A DNA stretch of 64,000 nt from Eubacteriales bacterium (GCA_045594085.1 JAZNXW010000003.1:8668-72667), one strand, 5' to 3'. Positions 10,789 through 51,362 are shown, counted from the first letter of the stretch. Numbers and translations are program-made. Notes: generated by a model not told the origin, from the sequence alone.

Positions 10789-11739
10789 ATGCCCGGACCC
10801 GGAGGAGGATCACGAGGCGGAGGCTTCGGAGGAGGATCACGCGGTGGCGGCAGCTTTGGAGGCTCTCGTCCCGGCGGCAGCTTTGGAGGAAACAGACCCC
10901 CGATGGGAGGTTTGCATCACCGTCCCACTATCCACATCGGCGGTCACCGTCACCGTTGGAGTGTCGGTCGTCCCGGCTACGGCGGTTACGGCGGCGGTGG
11001 ATGCTCCGGATGTGCGTTTGTCCTCATTTTCATACTCATAATTATGATTATGATCTTCGGCTCGATCAGTTCAGCGATTTCCTCGTTTTTCAGCGGCGGC
11101 GATACTGAATACAGCGAGGAAAAACTCCAAGCATACGCAGATCAATGCTACGCTGAGGCGTTCGGATCGCTTTCATCCGCGTATGAGGACAACATTCTGA
11201 TCGTATTCCTCGTCAACGACGAATGTAACGATTTTTACACGATCGCGTGGGTTGGCGACAATATTCATACCGAAATAAACAATCTTTTCGGTGATGAGAC
11301 GACCGCATACGGCAACGCCGTCTTCTCATACGTTGACACAGGCTATTACGCGTACTCGCTCGACAGCGCGCTTGCATCCGTTATAGACACTATGGCAGAC
11401 GAGATTGGCGCGCTCGGTCTTGAATCCTCGTTCCGTGCAGAATCTGCAGGCGCGAAGGCAGATTCGCATTTCGTGAACAAAAGCGGACTTGCACTGACTG
11501 CGTCAACCGTTGACGCATCACTTGATGCGTTCACGGACGAGACAGGCATCCCCACCGTCATTGTCGTTGACACAATCGAGGACGTTTTCGGCAAAACGAT
11601 GTCATTCGGCACGATCTACACCGTACTCGGCGTATTTGCCGTGATCGGTGTTGTGATCTGGCTTATCGTGAGAAAAGCGAAGAAGAACACCGCCGATAAA
11701 GAAGACTCCTACATTGAAAGTGATTACGATGAAATGTAA
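10789..11739 (+). CDS. membrane protein with RGG/Gly-rich N-terminus and a weakly TPM-like external domain
   Basis: Strong RBS AAGGAGG. MPGPGGGSRGGGFGGGSRGGGSFGG... is followed by a TM helix, a roughly 190-aa domain, a second TM helix and a charged tail. Confidence 0.6.
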   Translation: MPGPGGGSRGGGFGGGSRGGGSFGGSRPGGSFGGNRPPMGGLHHRPTIHIGGHRHRWSVGRPGYGGYGGGGCSGCAFVLIFILIIMIMIFGSISSAISSFFSGGDTEYSEEKLQAYADQCYAEAFGSLSSAYEDNILIVFLVNDECNDFYTIAWVGDNIHTEINNLFGDETTAYGNAVFSYVDTGYYAYSLDSALASVIDTMADEIGALGLESSFRAESAGAKADSHFVNKSGLALTASTVDASLDAFTDETGIPTVIVVDTIEDVFGKTMSFGTIYTVLGVFAVIGVVIWLIVRKAKKNTADKEDSYIESDYDEM

Positions 11740-23824: not shown

Positions 23825-26425
23825 TTGAAAAAGCATTTGACAGTGGGAATCCTCGCGCACGTTGACTCCGGCAAGACCACACTCGCCGAGGCGATACTCC
23901 ATTTGACGGGCAGTATCAGAAATCCGGGCAGAGTTGACCACGGAAACACTCATCTTGACACTCACGAGCTCGAACGCGAACGCGGAATCACGATATTTTC
24001 GTCCGAGGCGTCCGTTTCGACCGATAATTATACACTTACGCTCCTCGATACTCCCGGTCACGTCGATTTTTCGGCGGAGACTGAGCGAACTCTTGCCGTA
24101 CTTGACGCGGCGATCCTTGTCATCAGCGGCAGTGAGGGAGTGCAAAATCACACGGAAACGCTGTGGAGCCTTTTGCGCCGCCACGCAATCCCGACATTCA
24201 TTTTCATAAACAAAACCGACATTCCTACCGTCGAGTGCGGATCGGTTTTCGCAGAGATCCAACGCCGTCTTGACGGAGGATGCACCGATATTGCACTTCC
24301 GTCAGACGAGCTCGTCGAGGCGGTCTCGCTTCTTGACGAGGATCTGCTCGAACGCTATCTGAGCGGCGGCGAGGTGACGGACGAGGATATCCGTAGACTT
24401 ATCGGAGAATGCCGTCTTTTTCCTTGCATTTTCGGCTCAGCGCTTCGTCACGTCGGCGTAAGCGAGCTTCTCAGCGTCATCGACAGTTACGCTCCTTCCA
24501 CTGCGTTCACGGAGGAGTTCGGCGCACGCGTTTACAAGATATCTCACGACGAGCGCGGCGGCAGACTCACTCACATCAAGCTTACCGGAGGCAGGCTCGC
24601 GGTACGCGAGTCGATCACCTACAGCGCTCAGGACGGCGAGCGGACGGAAAAGATCACGTCTATCAAAACTGCCGTCGGAGCGAAGCTTGAGGCAGTAACC
24701 GAAGCGCAAGCGGGAATGCTCTGTGCCGTTTCCGGTCTGTCCGCAACGTATCCCGGTCAGGGGCTCGGCATCGAAAGCGAAGCGTCCTCACCTACGCTTG
24801 AGCCCGTGCTCGAATACCGAATATTGCTTCCGTCGGGCTGTGACGTGCGCGAATATTATCCGAAAATCAAGGTACTTGAGGAGGAGGATCCTCAGCTTCA
24901 CATCACATATAACGAGCGTCTCGGTGAGATCTACGTCCGTCTGATGGGCGAGGTTCAGACAGAGATACTCAAGTGCATCATAAAGTCACGCATAGGCATT
25001 GAGGTATCGATCGATTCGGGACGCATAATGTACCGCGAGACGATTGCGGCGCCCGTCACCGGTGTAGGTCACTTTGAACCGCTCCGCCACTACGCGGAGG
25101 TACACCTATATCTTGAGCCGACAGGTCCCGGAACAGGACTCACATTCCGTTCATCGTGCAGCGTCAACGCGCTCTCAAAGCATTGGCAGAGGCTCATTCT
25201 CTCTCATCTGCGCGAGCGCACGCACAGAGGTGTTCTGACGGGATCTCCCATCACCGATATGCGTATCACTTTGATCGCAGGACGCGCTCACGCTAAGCAC
25301 ACGGAAGGCGGTGACTTCCGTCAGGCAACGTACAGAGCAGTCCGTCAGGCGCTTATGACGGCACGAAGCGTACTTCTCGAGCCGTATTACGCATACAGGA
25401 TCACCGTTCCGACGCATCAGATCGGCAAGGTCATCACTGACGTCCGCGCAATGTCGGGTACGTTCGGCGCGCCCGTCGAGGACGAAAACGGCTTTTCGAC
25501 GCTGACGGGACGTGCGCCCGTTTCCGCTATGCGCAACTACGCTTCCGAGATCATTTCATACACACACGGCGTTGGCAAATTCGCCTTTGAGGTCTGCGGC
25601 TACTATCCCTGCCACGATCCCGAGGCTGTGATAGCGGAGCGTTCGTACGATCCCGAGGCGGATCTTCTCCACACGCCCGATTCCGTCTTCTGCGCACATG
25701 GCGCCGGCTTCAACGTCAAGTGGGACCGCGTGCGCGATTATATGCACATCACGCCCGTTATCACCGAAAAAGCGGAATCCGTGCTTCCGTCGCCGCGATC
25801 TGTGGCGAAAAAGCTCAAGATAGACGAGCGCGAGCTTGAGGCGATCATGGAGCGCGAGTTCGGTCCCATCCGTCGCCGTCAGTACGGCGCTCGAAAGGTC
25901 CGCGACTACAGAGATCGGAGCTACACCGAGGTCAAAAAGAATCCCGACTACTACATCGTAGACGGATACAACGTAATTTTCGCGTGGGATGAGCTTAAAA
26001 ACGCCGCGGAAGCGGAAATCGATCTCGCGCGCTCGCAGCTTATCGCAACGCTTGCGAGCTTCCGTGCGTACAAAAACTGTGATCTTCTGCTCGTTTTCGA
26101 TGCTTACAACGTCAAGGACGGCGTCGAGCGGCGCTACACCCACGAGGGCATTGACGTCGTTTACACAGGCGAGGAGGAGACCGCGGACGCATACATCGAG
26201 CGTCTGATCCACGAGATCGGAAAGAGCTATTTCGTCCGCGTTGTGACATCGGATGCGCTTTTACAGCTTTCCGCATTGTCAGGAGGCGTTATGCGTATGT
26301 CCGCGCGCGAATTCCGCGCAGAGGTCACTGCCGTTTCGGCGGAAATAACGGCATTTATCGAGTCGCTTGATGCGCCCATGCCGCGCGACGAGATCAAGCG
26401 CGACATTTCACTTACGGAAATATAA
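23825..26425 (+). CDS. TetM/EF-G-like translational GTPase fused to a C-terminal YacP/Rae1-type NYN ribonuclease domain
   Basis: TTG start with RBS GGAGGAcgtgacaa. G motifs are AHVDSGKTT, RGITI, DTPGH and NKTD. The C-terminal roughly 158 aa (nt 25949-26425) read YYIVDGYNVIFAW...LLLVFDAY...EETADAYIERL...VRVVTSD, like B. subtilis YacP. Confidence 0.85.
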   Translation: MKKHLTVGILAHVDSGKTTLAEAILHLTGSIRNPGRVDHGNTHLDTHELERERGITIFSSEASVSTDNYTLTLLDTPGHVDFSAETERTLAVLDAAILVISGSEGVQNHTETLWSLLRRHAIPTFIFINKTDIPTVECGSVFAEIQRRLDGGCTDIALPSDELVEAVSLLDEDLLERYLSGGEVTDEDIRRLIGECRLFPCIFGSALRHVGVSELLSVIDSYAPSTAFTEEFGARVYKISHDERGGRLTHIKLTGGRLAVRESITYSAQDGERTEKITSIKTAVGAKLEAVTEAQAGMLCAVSGLSATYPGQGLGIESEASSPTLEPVLEYRILLPSGCDVREYYPKIKVLEEEDPQLHITYNERLGEIYVRLMGEVQTEILKCIIKSRIGIEVSIDSGRIMYRETIAAPVTGVGHFEPLRHYAEVHLYLEPTGPGTGLTFRSSCSVNALSKHWQRLILSHLRERTHRGVLTGSPITDMRITLIAGRAHAKHTEGGDFRQATYRAVRQALMTARSVLLEPYYAYRITVPTHQIGKVITDVRAMSGTFGAPVEDENGFSTLTGRAPVSAMRNYASEIISYTHGVGKFAFEVCGYYPCHDPEAVIAERSYDPEADLLHTPDSVFCAHGAGFNVKWDRVRDYMHITPVITEKAESVLPSPRSVAKKLKIDERELEAIMEREFGPIRRRQYGARKVRDYRDRSYTEVKKNPDYYIVDGYNVIFAWDELKNAAEAEIDLARSQLIATLASFRAYKNCDLLLVFDAYNVKDGVERRYTHEGIDVVYTGEEETADAYIERLIHEIGKSYFVRVVTSDALLQLSALSGGVMRMSAREFRAEVTAVSAEITAFIESLDAPMPRDEIKRDISLTEI

Positions 26426-44048: not shown

Positions 44049-44750
44049 TCATCTGAAGGTTTTTCCGTTTGCGCCGAGCACGTCCACACGCATAATGGAG
44101 TGGCCGTCACATCCGGGAGCAATATTCTCCTCGTAGTCAAGGAGCGCCTTGACCGCTGTGACTATATACTCGGGATTGAGGTAATGCTCGGGGTCGGCGG
44201 CAAGCGTAACGTCGAGCTTCAGCTCGCCGTCTGTGCCCTCAACAGAAATTGACTTAATGAACGGACGTATATCACATTCCGTTTCGCCCGATTTCGTACG
44301 TTTCGTCACCACGACGGGAGCTTTCATCATCGCGCCTACGGCATCTGCGGATGCGGCATTAATGGCACTCGCGTGCATCTCGATAAGATAGCGCGAATGT
44401 GCGATATCGCGGAACTTCGTTTCGGGAACGTACACGTCCTTGATCTCAATTTCGGGGACTGTCGCATCAATGAGGCGACGTTTTATCTCGTCAACATCGA
44501 GCACCTGATCGTACACCTTGAGATCAACAAGCTCAAGCTCGCTTTCAGTGCCAACCGAAAGCGGAAGCGCGAACACGAGCTTGGGCTTCGGGTTGAAGCC
44601 CTCGGTGTAATACACATTGATGTTCGCTCTGACCACGAGCTTTGTCATGGTTCTCATCAGATCGAGATGCGAAATGAACTGAAGCGCACCTTTTTTGGAG
44701 AACACGACTCTGACAGGTGTCGGCTTGATTTTTATCTCTTTTTCCTGCAT
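44049..44750 (-). CDS. TIGR03936-family radical-SAM-associated protein (DUF2344)
   Basis: VVFSKKGALQFISHLDLMRTM...GFNPKPKLVFALPLSVGTESE. Overlaps the upstream radical SAM gene by 19 nt. Confidence 0.8.
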   Translation of the reverse strand: MQEKEIKIKPTPVRVVFSKKGALQFISHLDLMRTMTKLVVRANINVYYTEGFNPKPKLVFALPLSVGTESELELVDLKVYDQVLDVDEIKRRLIDATVPEIEIKDVYVPETKFRDIAHSRYLIEMHASAINAASADAVGAMMKAPVVVTKRTKSGETECDIRPFIKSISVEGTDGELKLDVTLAADPEHYLNPEYIVTAVKALLDYEENIAPGCDGHSIMRVDVLGANGKTFR

Positions 44751-46594
44751 AATACGTCTCCTCCGAATTTATTTGCACCGCAAGCCTCGCAGCCCTCGCG
44801 GCAGTTGCGAGTCGTGCGGCTCTTCTTCGCCAGATCATACTCGCGCTTCATAAACGTTTTTGTAACGCCGCAATCGATAACATCCCACGGAAGGACCTCG
44901 CTCGCATCGCGGTCGCGGTTTGCATAGAAAGCAGGATCGATGCCTGCCGCACGGAACGCCTCGTGCCAGCGATCGTAGCTGAAATGCTCATCCCACGCAT
45001 CGAAGCACGCGCCGAGGCGGTGCATCTCGAGCATAACGGCTGAGAGCTTTCTGTCGCCTCGCGCAAGAACCGCCTCGATCTCGGACACCTCAGAGTCGTG
45101 GAAGTCATAGCGGATGCGTCTGTCGCGGATATTATCCGCGATGAGGCGCTGACGGCGGCGGAATTCATCTCTGCTGATCTGCGGGAACCACTGGAACGGA
45201 GTGAACGGCTTCGGGATGAAGCACGCGGTCGAAATCGTAACCTTGGGAGAAAGCTTTCTGTTGCGTTCGGGAGTATTGTAATACTCCTGAACGACGCGCT
45301 CGGCAAGCCTTGCGATACCGATGACGTCCTCGTCCGTTTCTGTGGGCAGACCGATCATAAAATAGAGCTTGACCTGCGATTTGCCTGCGGCAAATGCGAT
45401 ATGGACCGCGTTCAGAATGTCCTCCTCGCGGACGTTTTTGTTGATCGCGTCGCGCAGGCGCTGTGTGCCTGCCTCGGGTGCGAACGTAAGTCCCGACGAG
45501 CGGACGCGGCTGATCTTTTCCATCAGCTCGGGAGTGAAGCTGTCCGCACGGAGCGACGGCAACGAAAGCGAGATCTTGCTGTCCGTAGTCCAATCTATAA
45601 GCTCGTCCGTTAGTCTGTCAACGCAGGTATAGTCGTCGATAGCGAGGGACGTGAGCGAGATCTCGTCATATCCTGTATTTTCGTACATCTCCTTTGCCTG
45701 ACGGCAGAGAGTTTCAACGCTTCTGTCGCGGACGGGGCGGTATATCATACCCGCCTGGCAGAATCTGCATCCGCGAATACATCCGCGGAAAACCTCGAGC
45801 ATTATTCTGTCGTGAACGACCTCTGTGAAAGGCATAACGGGCTTTGTCGGGAAATAGGATTTATCGAAATCCTCGACGATGCGCTTAATTACACGTGCGG
45901 GCACATTCTCGTCTGCGGGTATATAAGACGCGACGGTACCGTCAGCGTTATATTCAACGTTGTAAAGCGACGGGACATAGAAGCCCTCGAGCTCTGTTGC
46001 CGCCGCGTAAAGGAACGCCTTTTTCGTATACGTTCCGTCTTCCTTCATACGAATGTAAAGACGTGCGAGCTCCGGGAGCGCTTCCTCGCCCTCTCCGATC
46101 GAGAAGATATCGAAAAAGTCCGCCATCGGCTCCGCATTGTACGCGCACGGACCGCCGCCGATGACAACGGGATCGTTTTCATCACGTTCGGATGCGAGAA
46201 GCGGGATACCGCCAAGCTCAAGCATTTTGAGGACGGTCGTATAGCACATCTCATACTGAAGAGTGAATGCAACGATATCAAAATCCTTGATCGGATCGCC
46301 GCTTTCGTGCGCCCAAAGCGGAATATCGTACTCCTTCATCCGCTCCTGCATATCTGTCCAAGGTGCGTAAACGCGCTCGCACCACACGCCCTCGCACTCA
46401 TTGAGCGCACCGTACAGGATGCGCACGCCGAGATTGGACATACCTATTTCATATGTATCCGGAAAGCAGAATGCGAATCTGCATTTTACCTCCGCCTTAT
46501 CCTTTATTACCTGATTGCGCTCTCCACCCGTATATCTGCCGGGCTTCGTGACGCTTTTAAGGACGCTTGCGTATTTTTTGTAATCCATTATCAA
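44732..46594 (-). CDS. TIGR03960-family B12-binding-domain radical SAM protein
   Basis: N-terminus KPGRYTGGERN...FCFPDTYEIGMSNLG and cluster motif CIRGCRFCQAG. Confidence 0.85.
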   Translation of the reverse strand: MIMDYKKYASVLKSVTKPGRYTGGERNQVIKDKAEVKCRFAFCFPDTYEIGMSNLGVRILYGALNECEGVWCERVYAPWTDMQERMKEYDIPLWAHESGDPIKDFDIVAFTLQYEMCYTTVLKMLELGGIPLLASERDENDPVVIGGGPCAYNAEPMADFFDIFSIGEGEEALPELARLYIRMKEDGTYTKKAFLYAAATELEGFYVPSLYNVEYNADGTVASYIPADENVPARVIKRIVEDFDKSYFPTKPVMPFTEVVHDRIMLEVFRGCIRGCRFCQAGMIYRPVRDRSVETLCRQAKEMYENTGYDEISLTSLAIDDYTCVDRLTDELIDWTTDSKISLSLPSLRADSFTPELMEKISRVRSSGLTFAPEAGTQRLRDAINKNVREEDILNAVHIAFAAGKSQVKLYFMIGLPTETDEDVIGIARLAERVVQEYYNTPERNRKLSPKVTISTACFIPKPFTPFQWFPQISRDEFRRRQRLIADNIRDRRIRYDFHDSEVSEIEAVLARGDRKLSAVMLEMHRLGACFDAWDEHFSYDRWHEAFRAAGIDPAFYANRDRDASEVLPWDVIDCGVTKTFMKREYDLAKKSRTTRNCREGCEACGANKFGGDVLCRKKR

Positions 46595-46670: not shown

Positions 46671-49337
46671 TTAAATTATCATCTTGGACACGATGAACAT
46701 GGGAACGATCCAAACGAGCGCGTACAAGGATATGAATATGGGTGTGAGCGTGAGTGCGCCGAAGAGAAGCGCGAGCGCTGCGATCACAAGGCTGACGAAG
46801 AGCGAAATGATAACGAGCATCGTATTCACGCTACGTGCGTGGAGCACTTTTTCACAAAGCGCCACCGTCTGAATGACGGACTTGGGCGAATCCTTGGAAA
46901 CGAGGCCGCTTCCGGTCGTTTCTCCGACCTTGGTTTTGTCGTCGAGGCTCTTGCATCTGATGATGCGGATGGGATAATCCGCGAGCTTGATCTGCGCGCC
47001 GAGGAACTGCTCGGTGATGTTGGGATCAAACGTCTTCAGACCGATGAACATACCGCCGCGGTCAAGCTGCTTGAGAATGAACTCGAAATCAGCATCGACA
47101 ACGTAGGATATGAGCATACGGGAGATGAATTTGCCGTCCTTGACCATATACATAACGCTTACGACGGGCTCGAACACGTCATTTCTGTGAGGCTCAAGCG
47201 GTGCGGGGATCCTTACGCCTGCGGCTTCGAGCGCATCGATGGTACCGAAGGAGATCACGGATCCGTCAACCTCTGCTTCAAGCAGACCGGGAAGCGTACG
47301 GAGGAGCTTGACGTTTGAAGAATATCCGATATCGCGGGTAGCGATATCAAACACGTCTGAGAGCGGGCCGCCGACTGTGCAGAACACACTTGCCGCATAG
47401 TAAAGCACGTCATCGATACGGTTATTGCCGAACACGTTGATCGCACGAACGTTGACTCCCGTAGACGGGAACACGTTGTTGTCATCAAAAGAGATAATTG
47501 CCGCATCCGCATACTCTTCCGCGGAGCTTTCACCGATGATGGTGCTTTCATCCTCGTACGCTTTCTGGTTAGCCATATAGAAGGGGTGCGAAAACATATA
47601 GAACACGGACAGCGGCATGCATACAAGTGCCGTTGAGATTGCCGCCTTCATTCCTCCATAGAGAGTTCCTGCATCGTTATAGCTGAACGCAAAGAACGCG
47701 GCGGCGATAACGATAGCGGCGGGCACGATGAATCCGATGAACTTTCTGCCGTTCGGATAGCGGTTCGTGCGGAGGAAATAGTCGTTTACAAAGTCTGCAC
47801 ATTCGACTCTGAGAACGCCGATATCGTCGGCGTCATCGTCCTCGTCCATCATATCGGAGAATGCCTCGTGCTCGAGATGAGACTCGGACATTGTGAGATT
47901 TTCAAGCGCAAACTTCGACTTTTTCGACGAAATAATGCTGAAGCTGAGTATCTCGCGGCGAACATTGATATAATCGCTGACATACAGCACGATAAACATC
48001 ACAGCAACGGGAAGGTTGAATGTAACGGGACCGCCTTCCTCATACACGTGCACGAAGGAGATCACAACGCTGTAAAGCGCGTTGAGAATAAGCGCGAATG
48101 CGGCGATGGACTCGGGCGCGGGCTTCGCGCCGAAGAAATCGCGCAGTCCGGACCAAACGGACTTATACGCGGGAGCCGCGACAAGAAGCAGGAGCTGAAG
48201 TCCCACCATAATGAACACGACAGGATAGAGCGTAGGCGAGAAGGCTCCGCCGAGTGTTATACCGAATGCGGAGTGGCATTCGAAGATTGCAAGGATCAGC
48301 GTGAGGACGGTCGCATACAGAATCTTGACACCGGAGAGCTTTCTTGCGGCGGCATATGAGTCGCGGACCTCTCGGGTCTGAGTCTTGCTTGTGTATTCAT
48401 ATTCGAGACGGGATCTTTCGCGGTTGAGATTTTCAACGCGTTCGATATCGCCCTGCTGTTTTTCAACGTATGCGGTGACGTTTTTCTCACCGATGGATTC
48501 GTGGAGCTCATCCTCCATGCCGAGCGCAAGCATAATGTTCACGTCAAAGTCATCGACGTCGCTTTGCGGCTTATCTGTGGGGGAACCGAGCGCGGAGAAA
48601 TCCTCTTCATCGTCTCCTGAGACCGCGTCAAAGACGATTGTACCGTCTTCTTCAGCGGATTCGGACTCTTCTTCCGACTCCACGGGAGCCTCGACAGCTT
48701 CTTCTGTCGGTTCTGCCGTTTCTTCATCATCGGAGCCGTAAAGCTCGTCCTCGGGCTCCTCAAATTCAGCGAAGATGTCAATGTCATGATCGAAGCTCTT
48801 TGCGCCGGGCTCGACAAAATCGAACACGTTCGTTGCTTCATCCGGTGTCTCATTCTTCGCGCCGTCTTCGGATTCGTACTCTTCAACGCTGTCAAAGATA
48901 CTGAGATCTTCGTCCTCTTCTTCACTTTCCGCATCAAAGGACACGGCGTCAAACACAGCGGTACCCGCCTCAAGCTCGTCTATCACGGACGCACGTGCTG
49001 TATTTTCCGCAATTGCTTCTTCAATTGTGTCAGGCTCAGATTCAGCTTCGCTGACTCCGTGCATTCTGGCAGCCGTCATACGTCTTCTGCGTAACGGCTT
49101 GACCTCCGCTTCCGCAGAAACGGACGTGCCGTATTCCTTTACGTCATCGTCGTTTTCGGCGACAGCGGGATCGGTTGCGTCATCCGCGATCTGCGCAGAC
49201 GCTTCGTCCGCGAAATCCTCGTCCATATACTTGCGCAAAAGCTCAGTTATGTCGAGTTCGCTTTCCTTAGTCGGCTTATTGCCGTTGTTTTCGATCATAG
49301 CTTTCTCCAAAATTGATTTATCGTAATTTGGTGTCAT
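46671..49337 (-). CDS. membrane protein resembling a catalytically degenerate P1B-type ATPase, with a long acidic N-terminal region
   Basis: The TM and cytoplasmic-loop order parallels heavy-metal ATPases, but CPC becomes MPL, FDKTGT becomes FDDNNV, and TGDN becomes TFDPN. The first roughly 300 aa are D/E-rich. The ATG overlaps the rlmB stop (ATGA). Confidence 0.6.
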   Translation of the reverse strand: MTPNYDKSILEKAMIENNGNKPTKESELDITELLRKYMDEDFADEASAQIADDATDPAVAENDDDVKEYGTSVSAEAEVKPLRRRRMTAARMHGVSEAESEPDTIEEAIAENTARASVIDELEAGTAVFDAVSFDAESEEEDEDLSIFDSVEEYESEDGAKNETPDEATNVFDFVEPGAKSFDHDIDIFAEFEEPEDELYGSDDEETAEPTEEAVEAPVESEEESESAEEDGTIVFDAVSGDDEEDFSALGSPTDKPQSDVDDFDVNIMLALGMEDELHESIGEKNVTAYVEKQQGDIERVENLNRERSRLEYEYTSKTQTREVRDSYAAARKLSGVKILYATVLTLILAIFECHSAFGITLGGAFSPTLYPVVFIMVGLQLLLLVAAPAYKSVWSGLRDFFGAKPAPESIAAFALILNALYSVVISFVHVYEEGGPVTFNLPVAVMFIVLYVSDYINVRREILSFSIISSKKSKFALENLTMSESHLEHEAFSDMMDEDDDADDIGVLRVECADFVNDYFLRTNRYPNGRKFIGFIVPAAIVIAAAFFAFSYNDAGTLYGGMKAAISTALVCMPLSVFYMFSHPFYMANQKAYEDESTIIGESSAEEYADAAIISFDDNNVFPSTGVNVRAINVFGNNRIDDVLYYAASVFCTVGGPLSDVFDIATRDIGYSSNVKLLRTLPGLLEAEVDGSVISFGTIDALEAAGVRIPAPLEPHRNDVFEPVVSVMYMVKDGKFISRMLISYVVDADFEFILKQLDRGGMFIGLKTFDPNITEQFLGAQIKLADYPIRIIRCKSLDDKTKVGETTGSGLVSKDSPKSVIQTVALCEKVLHARSVNTMLVIISLFVSLVIAALALLFGALTLTPIFISLYALVWIVPMFIVSKMII

Positions 49338-50137: not shown

Positions 50138-50241
50138 ATAAATCTATCAAAACCTATACTTCGAGAAATACATTCATAACATTATATCACATTTATTTCG
50201 TTTTGTATATATTTTTAGCGATTTTTTTGATTGGCAAACAC

Positions 50242-50278
50242 AAAAAACGAAGCCGTGCAACAGCACAGCTTCGTTTTT
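50242..50278. terminator. bidirectional terminator
   Basis: aaaaaacgaagc...gcttcgttttt. Confidence 0.7.
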
Positions 50279-50691: not shown

Positions 50692-51273
50692 TTACTGCGT
50701 GATGAGCTTTTGAAGCTTACCGCGCATTCTGTAAAGTGCGTTTTCGACCGTTTTGACGTTCACACCGAGTGTGTCCGCGATGGTGGACGGCTTGGCACCG
50801 TCAACGTAAAGGTCGTACACCTCATACTCAAGCGGAGACAAGACGGCTTTGATCTTATAATCGAGCTCCTGCTCGCTTTCCATATTGAGCAACATCTCCG
50901 ACGGATCGGGATCGAGAGATACGCCGTCTTCAAGATCAAACGCGTCCTCATCGACGGCGGTAAACACACCACTGTGACGTCTGATAAGGGAGATCATACG
51001 ATTTTTAATGCAGATCTTTGCATAAAGACCGAAGCTGACGTCCTCTTTGGCAGGATCGTATCGGAGTGCGGACTGATAAAGCTTAATGACCGCCTCCTGG
51101 CGGAATTCTTCCTCATCGGTGCGTGTCACATCAGACATAAGCGACGCTGCGCCGATAACTGAGGAGTCGATAAGCGGGGCGTATCTGCGGAGAAGCTCCG
51201 CGCACGCGTCATCATCGCCGGACTTGACTGCCGATATCAATTCATCAACTGAAAATTTGTCGTAATTTATCAT
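50692..51273 (-). CDS. sigma-70 family RNA polymerase sigma factor (SigH-like size and architecture)
   Basis: Region 2 (EEFRQEAVIKLYQSALRYD) and region 4 HTH (LSPLEYEVYDLYVDGAKPSTIADTLGVNVKTVENALYRMRGKL). Confidence 0.75.
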   Translation of the reverse strand: MINYDKFSVDELISAVKSGDDDACAELLRRYAPLIDSSVIGAASLMSDVTRTDEEEFRQEAVIKLYQSALRYDPAKEDVSFGLYAKICIKNRMISLIRRHSGVFTAVDEDAFDLEDGVSLDPDPSEMLLNMESEQELDYKIKAVLSPLEYEVYDLYVDGAKPSTIADTLGVNVKTVENALYRMRGKLQKLITQ

Positions 51274-51362
51274 ATTTTCACTGCCAAAAACACTATACCT
51301 TGTGTATTATATCACATTCAGGCGATTTGTCAACATATTATGAACAGATTTTGAAATATTTT

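Follow-up and report, generated by a model that had tools for sequence, protein, structure and literature searches.

A predicted CopA-type pseudo-pump encoded next to rlmB in Oscillospirales-type gut Clostridia

The locus and its reading frame

The window analyzed here is a stretch of 64,000 nucleotides from the genome of an Eubacteriales bacterium (GCA_045594085.1, JAZNXW010000003.1:8668-72667), in which positions 46671..49337 of the minus strand hold an uninterrupted frame of 888 codons directly downstream of rlmB. The product is a membrane protein, referred to below as the pseudo-ATPase, that is almost certainly a dead pump derived from CopA-type ATPases and maintained under selection. An earlier reading made from the DNA sequence alone (the sequence-only reading) had already reported the intact frame, and translation of the window confirmed it. 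Residue numbers follow the 888-codon frame, and feature coordinates, counted from the first letter of the window, are collected in Table 1.

The same reading proposed that the gene is translationally coupled to rlmB through an ATGA at 49334-49337. This tetranucleotide is indeed present, and in it the ATG of the 888-codon frame overlaps the rlmB stop codon; however, the overlap is probably incidental, and the coupling is unsupported because the real start most likely lies 39 nucleotides downstream. Inspection of the sequence revealed no Shine-Dalgarno-like site upstream of the overlapping ATG (49337). The next candidate, an in-frame ATG at 49298..49296 located 39 nucleotides downstream, corresponds to M14 of the frame and is preceded by a GGAGA Shine-Dalgarno sequence. 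In addition, 76 of the 80 other sequences in the family alignment A1, which comprises 81 sequences of the close clade, start exactly at the methionine aligned with M14, the database product of the gene has 875 residues, and the gap between rlmB and the gene is 36 nucleotides in a 93%-identical orthologue. Thus, translation most likely begins at the ATG at 49298, which gives a gene of 875 codons (46671..49298) beginning 36 nucleotides after rlmB.

A consensus scan revealed no terminator-like site on the minus strand between rlmB and the pseudo-ATPase gene. The promoter-like site upstream of rlmB and the terminator-like hairpin after the upstream zf_Tbcl gene, both obtained as pattern matches in the same scan, suggest how the pair may be transcribed. 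The hairpin would set the zf_Tbcl gene apart from rlmB and the pseudo-ATPase gene, which fits a shared transcript, and the pseudo-ATPase gene is probably co-transcribed with rlmB from the promoter-like site at approximately 50181-50209.

Similarity to CopA-type ATPases

Searches of Pfam (E<=1) and NCBIfam (E<=10) with the 888-residue product yielded no match, and a divergent member reached no better than E 0.028 for PF00122. Comparison with the PDB by phmmer identified Legionella CopA (3rfu) as the best match of the single sequence (E 0.008), and CopA was the sole sequence matched by the A1 profile (E 8e-5). Five canonical P-type ATPases encoded in the genome, including a CopA (L005:817-3027), served as internal controls; both this CopA and the CadA/ZntA-like pump of the window carry the canonical P1B signature motifs. 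Hhalign aligned A1 with the CopA of the same genome over 482 columns, from helix MA to helix M5, with a probability of 90% (E 1.4e-6). The CadA-like pump of the window aligned far worse (E 0.006, probability 6%), and therefore the nearest active relatives of the family appear to be of the CopA type.

An AlphaFold model based on A1 leaves residues 1-256 disordered and reaches a predicted local distance difference test score (pLDDT) above 90 over residues 260-888. It contains eight transmembrane (TM) helices, a remnant of the actuator (A) domain of about 60 residues, and a cytoplasmic head resembling the phosphorylation (P) and nucleotide-binding (N) domains. Helix M4 of the model is interrupted at residues 574-576, where M-P-L takes the place of CPC. 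In a Foldseek comparison of the model with the PDB, the top 11 matches were all P1B ATPases (4bbj at 3e-16, 3rfu, ATP7B, 7r0g, and ZntA), aligned over about 690 columns, followed by KdpB, CadA, HMA4, and pumps of the P2 and P3 types. The family that diverges most within the order (A5) was modeled too and is likewise CopA-like, its model matching 4bbj at E 1e-16.

The relationship is also visible from the side of the active enzymes. The family profile cross-matches canonical CopAs from other orders of Clostridia (E 1e-8 to 3e-20) through the MA-M2 and P/N regions; CPC and DKTGT are present in the five cross-matches that were inspected, and SEHPL, TGDN, and GDGINDAP are intact in the cross-hit CopAs. 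The order of TM helices and cytoplasmic loops had been described from the sequence as tracking a heavy-metal P-type ATPase, and the 482-column alignment, the model, and the Foldseek matches agree with this description. Taken together, residues ~336-888 are predicted to form the fold of a CopA-type P1B ATPase, in which eight TM helices are combined with P and N domains and an A domain of reduced size.

Loss of the catalytic and metal-binding motifs

The motif substitutions proposed in the sequence-only reading lie where it had placed them. The phmmer alignment with 3rfu pairs MPL with CPC, (F)DDNNVFP with (V)DKTGTLT, GGPL with EHPL, and TFD with TGD, and the coordinates were rechecked. To follow these slots through the family, we tallied 465 family proteins aligned to a broader profile. 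In the CPC slot, which reads M-P-L in the window protein, only the proline is left: P575 is kept in 452 of the 465 proteins, the residues beside it are small or hydrophobic, the cysteines are gone, and a CPx-like triplet occurs once (1/465). The phosphorylation slot reads FDDNNVFP in the window protein, and no family member has DKTG in this slot (0/465), the four DKTG strings found all being located elsewhere. Both the glutamate and the histidine of SEHPL are replaced by glycine in the GGPL sequence, which is invariant in the clade. In the TGDN slot (TFDPN), the threonine, aspartate, and asparagine are kept, the glycine is lost, and a proline is inserted; D771 is found in 463 and N773 in 435 of the 465 proteins.

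Other parts of the pump are missing altogether. The GDGxNDxP hinge had been called unrecognisable; it is indeed absent (GDGxND in 0/465), but it is not merely eroded, since hhalign reveals a gap of about 37 residues relative to CopA at the place of the conserved lysine and GDGxNDAP. According to the hhalign gaps and the model, the A domain has shrunk to about 60 residues compared with about 120 in CopA, and the column tallies contain no conserved TGE. The CopA metal ligands YN and MxxSS were not evident in M5 and M6 when we read the sequence, and no heavy-metal-associated (HMA) domain was matched in Pfam at E<=1, the N-terminus being an acidic disordered region and not a His-rich tail. Lacking the metal ligands, DKTGT, the nucleotide-binding histidine, TGE, and the GDGxND segment, the pseudo-ATPase should be unable to run the E1/E2 pumping cycle, and we infer that it is non-catalytic. 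In the 81-sequence clade, the ancestral motif slots are occupied by invariant residues specific to the family (Table 1).

Selection and distribution

Selection was estimated by the Nei-Gojobori method against the 93%-identical orthologue. The ratio of nonsynonymous to synonymous substitution rates (dN/dS) was 0.022 for the P/N-like head, 0.039 for the TM helices with the reduced A domain, 0.038 for the whole core, and 0.12 for the disordered tail; with a synonymous divergence (dS) of about 1, near saturation, these values are approximate, yet far below 1. The tail, with a range of 0.12-0.37, is the least constrained part, and the ranking of regions is the same in more distant pairs. Residues conserved in at least 80% of the family are likewise found mostly in the P/N head (F623, R640, D642, G656 to L659, F663, G698, Y730, Y745, D771, and N773); those outside the head include the M4 proline P575, P585, and R461 at the end of M2. 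The invariance of W876 and P879 is confined to the close clade. No polar intramembrane residue conserved across the order was found in the column tallies of the 465 members.

A word-indexed search retrieved more than 327 relatives, all annotated as 'hypothetical' and all from metagenome-assembled genomes of Clostridia, and a scan of species representatives found relatives in 227 genomes. For a systematic survey, we took a broader alignment that includes deeper branches (A2; ~15% identity from one branch to another) and searched 201 genomes from across the order, which, judging from the names of the carriers, we take to be Oscillospirales in GTDB terms. Matches at E<=1e-15 were obtained in 192 of the 201 genomes, including 165 of the 170 high-quality genomes and 117 of the 121 genera; 187 of the matches were below 1e-22, that is, beyond the best cross-match to a canonical CopA (3e-20). 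The gene is nearly always present in a single copy. In a sample of 250 genomes from the class, matches outside the order were far weaker, and those inspected were canonical CopAs; presence of the family outside the order, considered as a possibility, was rejected since the best matches in this sample were such CopAs. In a representative library clustered at 50% identity, 4,644 clusters matched at E<=1e-3 and 2,447 at E<=1e-30.

Thus, the gene is maintained rather than decaying, as the sequence-only reading had held: dN/dS is 0.022 in the head and 0.038 in the core, 187-192 of the 201 genomes carry the gene in one copy, and the family has invariant residues of its own. The scaffold or sensor role proposed in that reading would be consistent with this pattern of conservation. 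Orthologues riddled with stop codons, named in that reading as contrary evidence, were not seen, as only one of the matches listed for the 201 genomes contains an internal stop.

Cultured carriers identified by exact look-up are Ethanoligenens harbinense (ADU27562.1), [Clostridium] cellulosi DG5 (CCDG5_1306), and [Eubacterium] siraeum DSM 15702 (EUBSIR_02271). The carrier proteins are annotated as 'hypothetical', 'E1-E2 ATPase', 'Cu+-exporting ATPase', or 'cation transport ATPase', and one member (P0413, locus L124) is named 'procyclic acidic repetitive family protein' by NCBI, evidently after its acidic repetitive tail. All of these names other than 'hypothetical' are misleading for members of this family. 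A sporulation-specific role was considered and is unlikely, as the gene is near-universal in the order, which presumably includes some non-spore-forming taxa.

Linkage to rlmB and the gene neighborhood

The gene upstream of the pseudo-ATPase encodes RlmB, the SpoU-family 23S rRNA Gm2251 2'-O-methyltransferase (Table 1). Whether this linkage is conserved had been raised as a check on the sequence-only reading: rlmB lies immediately upstream on the same strand in all 36 of the 36 loci examined, which represent about 28 families, and in the close clade it is found upstream in every locus with enough upstream sequence. The conserved block of this clade reads SBP_bac_5, DUF4364, sigma factor, zf_Tbcl, rlmB, pseudo-ATPase, the B12-binding radical S-adenosylmethionine (radical SAM) gene with its DUF2344 partner, and DUF421. 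In the order-wide sample, rlmB is the sole constant neighbor and the genes upstream of it vary. The downstream gene varies too: an EF-G-like GTPase of about 690 residues was found in 6-8 of 23 diverse loci, and elsewhere pyruvate phosphate dikinase (in E. siraeum), Lon, RNase H, and others. No metal-homeostasis genes were found in the neighborhoods examined, and the gene was never seen beside copA, copZ, or csoR. The unbroken linkage to rlmB and the frequency of the EF-G-like neighbor lend the locus a translation-related flavor, but the association with translation genes is partial, and any argument drawn from it is one of guilt by association.

The loci with the EF-G-like GTPase downstream are L100, L106, L114, L121, L127, and L128, and in the three of them that were checked the GTPase gene is followed by DUF4830. 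In the genome studied here, an EF-G-like GTPase is fused to NYN_YacP at window positions 23825..26425. An ancestral cluster of rlmB, the pseudo-ATPase gene, the EF-G-like gene, and rae1 was rejected, as the gene after the GTPase is DUF4830 and not YacP/Rae1, and E. siraeum has the dikinase. Eight of the longest family members (1,046-1,294 residues), inspected for Rosetta-stone fusions, carry no extra Pfam domain.

In several lineages (L036, L037, L055, L070, L107, L119, L130, and others), RlmB itself has a basic N-terminal extension of 30-340 residues that is rich in K, R, N, and G, with a net charge of +3 to +24; the RlmB of the window has none. Charge pairing of this extension with the acidic tail of the pseudo-ATPase was rejected, as neither length nor charge is correlated (rho -0.02 and -0.13, n=112).

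Two further observations concern other genes of the window. The sigma-factor gene (193 residues, 50692..51273) has a perfect extended sigma-70 promoter, TTGACA-16-TG-TATAAT (12/12), just upstream at 51306..51333 on the minus strand. Directly after the canonical ATPase gene, an open reading frame of 316 residues (10789..11739, plus strand) encodes a protein with TM segments and a Gly/Ser/Arg-rich N-terminus (PGPGGGSRGGGFGGGS...).

N-terminal extension and tip motif

Ahead of the first TM helix lies a cytoplasmic extension; in the family its median length is about 295 residues and its median net charge is -26, both length and charge varying across the order. The FD repeats of this region (Table 1) are limited to the clade of the window. 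In one family (loci L122 and L126), two members of 543-548 residues lack the extension altogether, their first TM helix following about 20 residues after the start. As these two have no tail and a few have a net basic one, the tail is not essential to the core function.

Near its tip the extension carries a short motif, which reads SELDITELLRKYM in the window protein; the motif in its consensus form (Table 1) was found in 113 of 122 family members outside the close clade, with a median start at residue 20. The model places a helix at residues 30-37 with a pLDDT of ~64 in otherwise disordered surroundings. Docking peptides carried on flexible tethers typically look like this, and the motif suggests the recruitment of a cytoplasmic partner.

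The tip resembles the C-terminal peptide of FtsZ from the same genome, DDDFDDLMSILKKTR, and across 20 genomes the tip and FtsZ peptides share a D-I-h-x-x-F flavor. We therefore considered mimicry of the FtsZ tail and rejected it: with a matrix derived from the family tips, many unrelated acidic helices score 17-21, whereas the FtsZ peptide scores only 11.9. The C-terminal peptides of FtsZ in the order, for instance EYFDIMSIFNRRK or DDLMSILKKTR (L133-L153), lack the canonical proline of D-I-P-x-F-L. In E. harbinense (L097) and [C.] cellulosi (L098), ftsZ is located on the same strand about 4-5 kb upstream of the rlmB/pseudo-ATPase pair, with two or three genes between.

Table 1. Features of the pseudo-ATPase locus and related genes in the window
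Feature	Coordinates	Strand	Details
Pseudo-ATPase coding sequence, corrected	46671..49298	-	875 codons + stop; begins at M14 of the 888-codon frame
In-frame upstream extension of 13 codons, probably untranslated	49299..49337	-	no Shine-Dalgarno sequence; absent from 76/80 other family members
Shine-Dalgarno sequence GGAGA	49304..49308	-	spacer of 5 nucleotides to ATG 49298; read from sequence
Acidic disordered N-terminal region, residues 14-255	48573..49298	-	82 D+E vs 14 K+R; four [VI]FD.V repeats; pLDDT <50
N-terminal tip motif SELDITELLRKYM, residues 26-38	49224..49262	-	short predicted helix; consensus S-[IL]-D-[DE]-[LI]-L-x-[EK]-[LYF]
Juxtamembrane helices, residues 256-335 (DVNIMLALGMEDEL..., E314-Y315)	48333..48572	-	helices 263-310 and 318 onward, pLDDT 80-90; E314 in 418/465
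TM helices MA, MB, M1, M2, residues 336-469	47931..48332	-	KPxPES loop matching CopA PNMDxL (hhalign); profile matches CopAs of other orders here, E~1e-11
Reduced A (actuator) domain, residues 470-528	47754..47930	-	model strands 475-480 and 507-517; hhalign gaps; no conserved TGE
TM helices M3 and M4, residues 529-595	47553..47753	-	break M574-P575-L576; DSSP helices 559-573 and 577-595; P575 codon 47613-47615
CPC slot			[LMI]-P575-[AVM]-S577 in close clade (81 sequences)
Remodelled P/N-like cytoplasmic head, residues 596-817	46887..47552	-	most constrained part, dN/dS 0.022
DKTGTLT slot, SFDDNNVFPS, within P/N-like head	47463-47492	-	S616-F-D618-D619-x-N621-V-F-P-S625 in close clade (81 sequences)
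SEHPL slot, GGPL, within P/N-like head	47361-47372	-	G656-G-P-L659 in close clade (81 sequences)
TGDN slot, TFDPN, within P/N-like head	47019-47033	-	K768-T-F-D771-P-N773 in close clade (81 sequences)
Stalk and TM helices M5 and M6, residues 818-888	46674..46886	-	helices 818-859 and 866-887
rlmB, 23S rRNA Gm2251 2'-O-methyltransferase, SpoU family, 267 residues	49334..50137	-	TIGR00186 equivalog, E 8e-65, 218.6 bits vs cut-off 160
Promoter-like TATACA-17-(TG)TATAAT, 10/12 matches	50181..50209	-	upstream of rlmB; consensus scan, pattern match only
Terminator-like hairpin after upstream zf_Tbcl gene	50252..50264	-	consensus scan, pattern match only
TIGR03960 B12-binding radical SAM gene and DUF2344 partner, downstream	44049..46594	-	conserved neighbors in the clade of the window only
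Canonical P1B ATPase, CadA/ZntA-like, 632 residues	8797..10695	+	CPC, DKTGTLT, SEHPL, TGDN, GDGVNDAP intact

Proposed function and alternative explanations

The protein combines homology to an enzyme family with the loss of essential catalytic residues, and it is under purifying selection and intact across lineages; it is thus a pseudoenzyme in the operational sense. As an overall explanation, this catalytically dead descendant of CopA-type (P1B-1) ATPases would act as a non-pumping membrane scaffold or receptor; we consider the explanation as a whole fairly probable, although the scaffold or receptor mechanism taken by itself has somewhat less than even odds. The mechanism includes the following parts: (i) the fossil pump would be a scaffold or receptor that its membrane domain anchors in the membrane, (ii) the constrained and remodelled P/N cleft (D618/D619, F623, R640, D642, GGPL, F663, Y745, D771, and N773) would bind a protein or a small ligand, and (iii) the long, mostly acidic disordered N-terminus would present the tip helix and thereby recruit a cytoplasmic partner. 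Binding or scaffolding by the head is favored over an ion pathway because the constraint is concentrated in the head and at structural positions of the membrane core, whereas conserved polar residues within the membrane were not found. A more specific role as a hub at the membrane for the machinery of translation or ribosome maturation, with RlmB, late pre-50S particles, and, in some families, the downstream EF-G-like GTPase as candidate partners, seems improbable; if true, such a link to translation would account for the lasting attachment of the gene to rlmB through the history of the order.

Several observations weigh against the scaffold or receptor explanation or soften its support. Nearly all members retain the former phosphorylation aspartate or its neighbor; the slot reads D-x-[D/E] in many families, resembling motif I, DxDx(T/V), of the haloacid dehalogenase (HAD) superfamily, and in the TGDN slot D771 and N773 hardly ever change, so that some phosphoryl or metal chemistry may take place in the cleft. 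Two members of one family do without the N-terminal extension, and in a few others its net charge is positive. Operon inertia, rather than a functional link, may account for the adjacency to rlmB, and the near-saturation of dS noted above makes the estimates of selection approximate.

As the aspartate pair 618/619 is retained, residual phosphoryl chemistry was kept as a rival explanation, in which the head has remained an enzyme or become a phospho-switch: either a HAD-like phosphatase site formed by the aspartate pair with D771 and N773, or a receiver-like site whose phosphorylation, by a kinase or small phosphodonors, would switch the conformation of the membrane domain. In many families of the order, the phosphorylation slot has the form hhhh-x-D-x-[D/E]-h-F-P, nearly every one of the 465 members has an acidic residue at 618 or 619 (D-x-x-D in 138, x-D-x-D/E in ~58), and D-x-D-L-F-P is invariant in the most divergent family (A5); the near-invariance of D771 and N773 and the strongest constraint in the head point in the same direction. 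However, the clade of the window reads D-D-x-N, with N and not D/E at the second acidic position, the GDGxND Mg2+ loop and the preceding conserved lysine are deleted, and both the nucleotide-binding histidine and the glutamate have become glycine. No Pfam HAD or hydrolase model matches at E<=1, and the column tallies contain no conserved acidic pair downstream of TFDPN; the motif III lysine and the acidic Mg2+ ligands of motif IV that a HAD phosphatase needs fall in the deleted segment. An enzymatic or switching head is accordingly regarded as unlikely.

A second rival assumes that the protein is still a transporter or channel, the P1B core conducting or binding a substrate passively or with an external source of energy and the head serving as its gate. 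All eight TM helices are kept, as is the M4 proline, at which the helix is broken exactly in the model, dN/dS of the TM region is 0.039, and some annotation pipelines label members 'cation transport ATPase' or 'Cu+-exporting ATPase'. Nevertheless, the membrane domain offers no conserved polar or charged residue within the membrane, only P575, P585, and R461 at the end of M2 passing 80%; the CPC cysteines have given way to small or hydrophobic residues around the proline, and metal-homeostasis genes are absent from the neighborhood. We regard transport as very unlikely.

Pseudoenzymes often modulate their own active paralogues, and the pseudo-ATPase might regulate an active P-type ATPase, for example the CopA of the genome, by forming heteromers with it. 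The genome has five canonical P-type ATPases to choose from, including CopA, which is the nearest active relative. This arrangement is given an even lower probability than transport, as the constant neighbor is rlmB and never copA, copZ, or csoR in the loci examined, and as an identity of ~15% between families of one order is hard to fit with an interface on a slowly evolving pump. Finally, a decaying pseudogene or an annotation artefact, to which the loss of every catalytic motif and the lack of a matching Pfam or NCBIfam model might point, is effectively refuted by dN/dS values far below 1 and by frames intact here and in hundreds of genomes (one internal stop among the matches listed for the 201 genomes), as well as by the invariant motifs of the family and its confident fold prediction.

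Comparison with known systems

The CopA-type P1B-1 Cu(I)-ATPases, represented by Legionella pneumophila CopA (3RFU/4BBJ), ATP7B, and the CopA of this genome, give the best sequence, profile, and fold matches to the pseudo-ATPase. Both share the same topology of eight TM helices, the proline break in M4, and the order of the A, P, and N domains, and the MB-M1 loop is similar (PNMDxL in CopA, KPxPES in the pseudo-ATPase). Unlike CopA, the pseudo-ATPase lacks HMA, CPC, YN, MxxSS, TGE, DKTGT, and SEHPL, its GDGxND segment is deleted, and its A domain is halved; it has gained a disordered N-terminus of 100-650 residues with the tip motif and is encoded with rlmB and not with copper genes. The ZntA/CadA-type P1B-2 ATPases (4UMV/4UMW, 7QBZ, and the pump of the window) share the P1B fold (Foldseek E 4e-13 to 2e-11) but are more distant than CopA, and all motifs of the pump of the window are intact.

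KdpB, the P1A subunit of KdpFABC, is also similar in fold (E ~1e-11). It is fully catalytic (DKTGT, TGES) and works only within a larger membrane complex, whereas the pseudo-ATPase has no genes for Kdp partners nearby. More general parallels are offered by pseudoenzymes of membranes, such as iRhoms and derlins, which are dead rhomboid proteases, and by the pseudokinases. The resemblance to these systems, in which a fold is kept under purifying selection after catalytic loss and the region of the active site is re-used for binding or scaffolding, is a conceptual analogy between unrelated folds.

Implications

P-type ATPases are among the best understood membrane enzymes. In the searchable literature, we came across no natural family of P-type ATPases described as non-catalytic and no mention of the locus tags, and no Pfam or NCBIfam model or publication was found for the pseudo-ATPase family. 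If the present interpretation is true, no natural family of non-catalytic P-type ATPases would have been recognised before this one, a single-copy 'pseudo-pump' found order-wide in Oscillospirales-type gut Clostridia, in which a lineage keeps the whole P-type fold and drops the whole catalytic cycle, a combination for which no natural counterpart was found described. Correct annotation of its members would avoid false calls of metal resistance. It would also flag a conserved function, carried by a near-universal single-copy gene, in important commensals, as numerous dominant anaerobes of the gut belong to this order. What the P-type scaffold can do in the absence of phosphorylation is a question on which nature has run an experiment in this family, and one hypothesis, raised by the invariant link to rlmB, can be tested directly in its cultured members.

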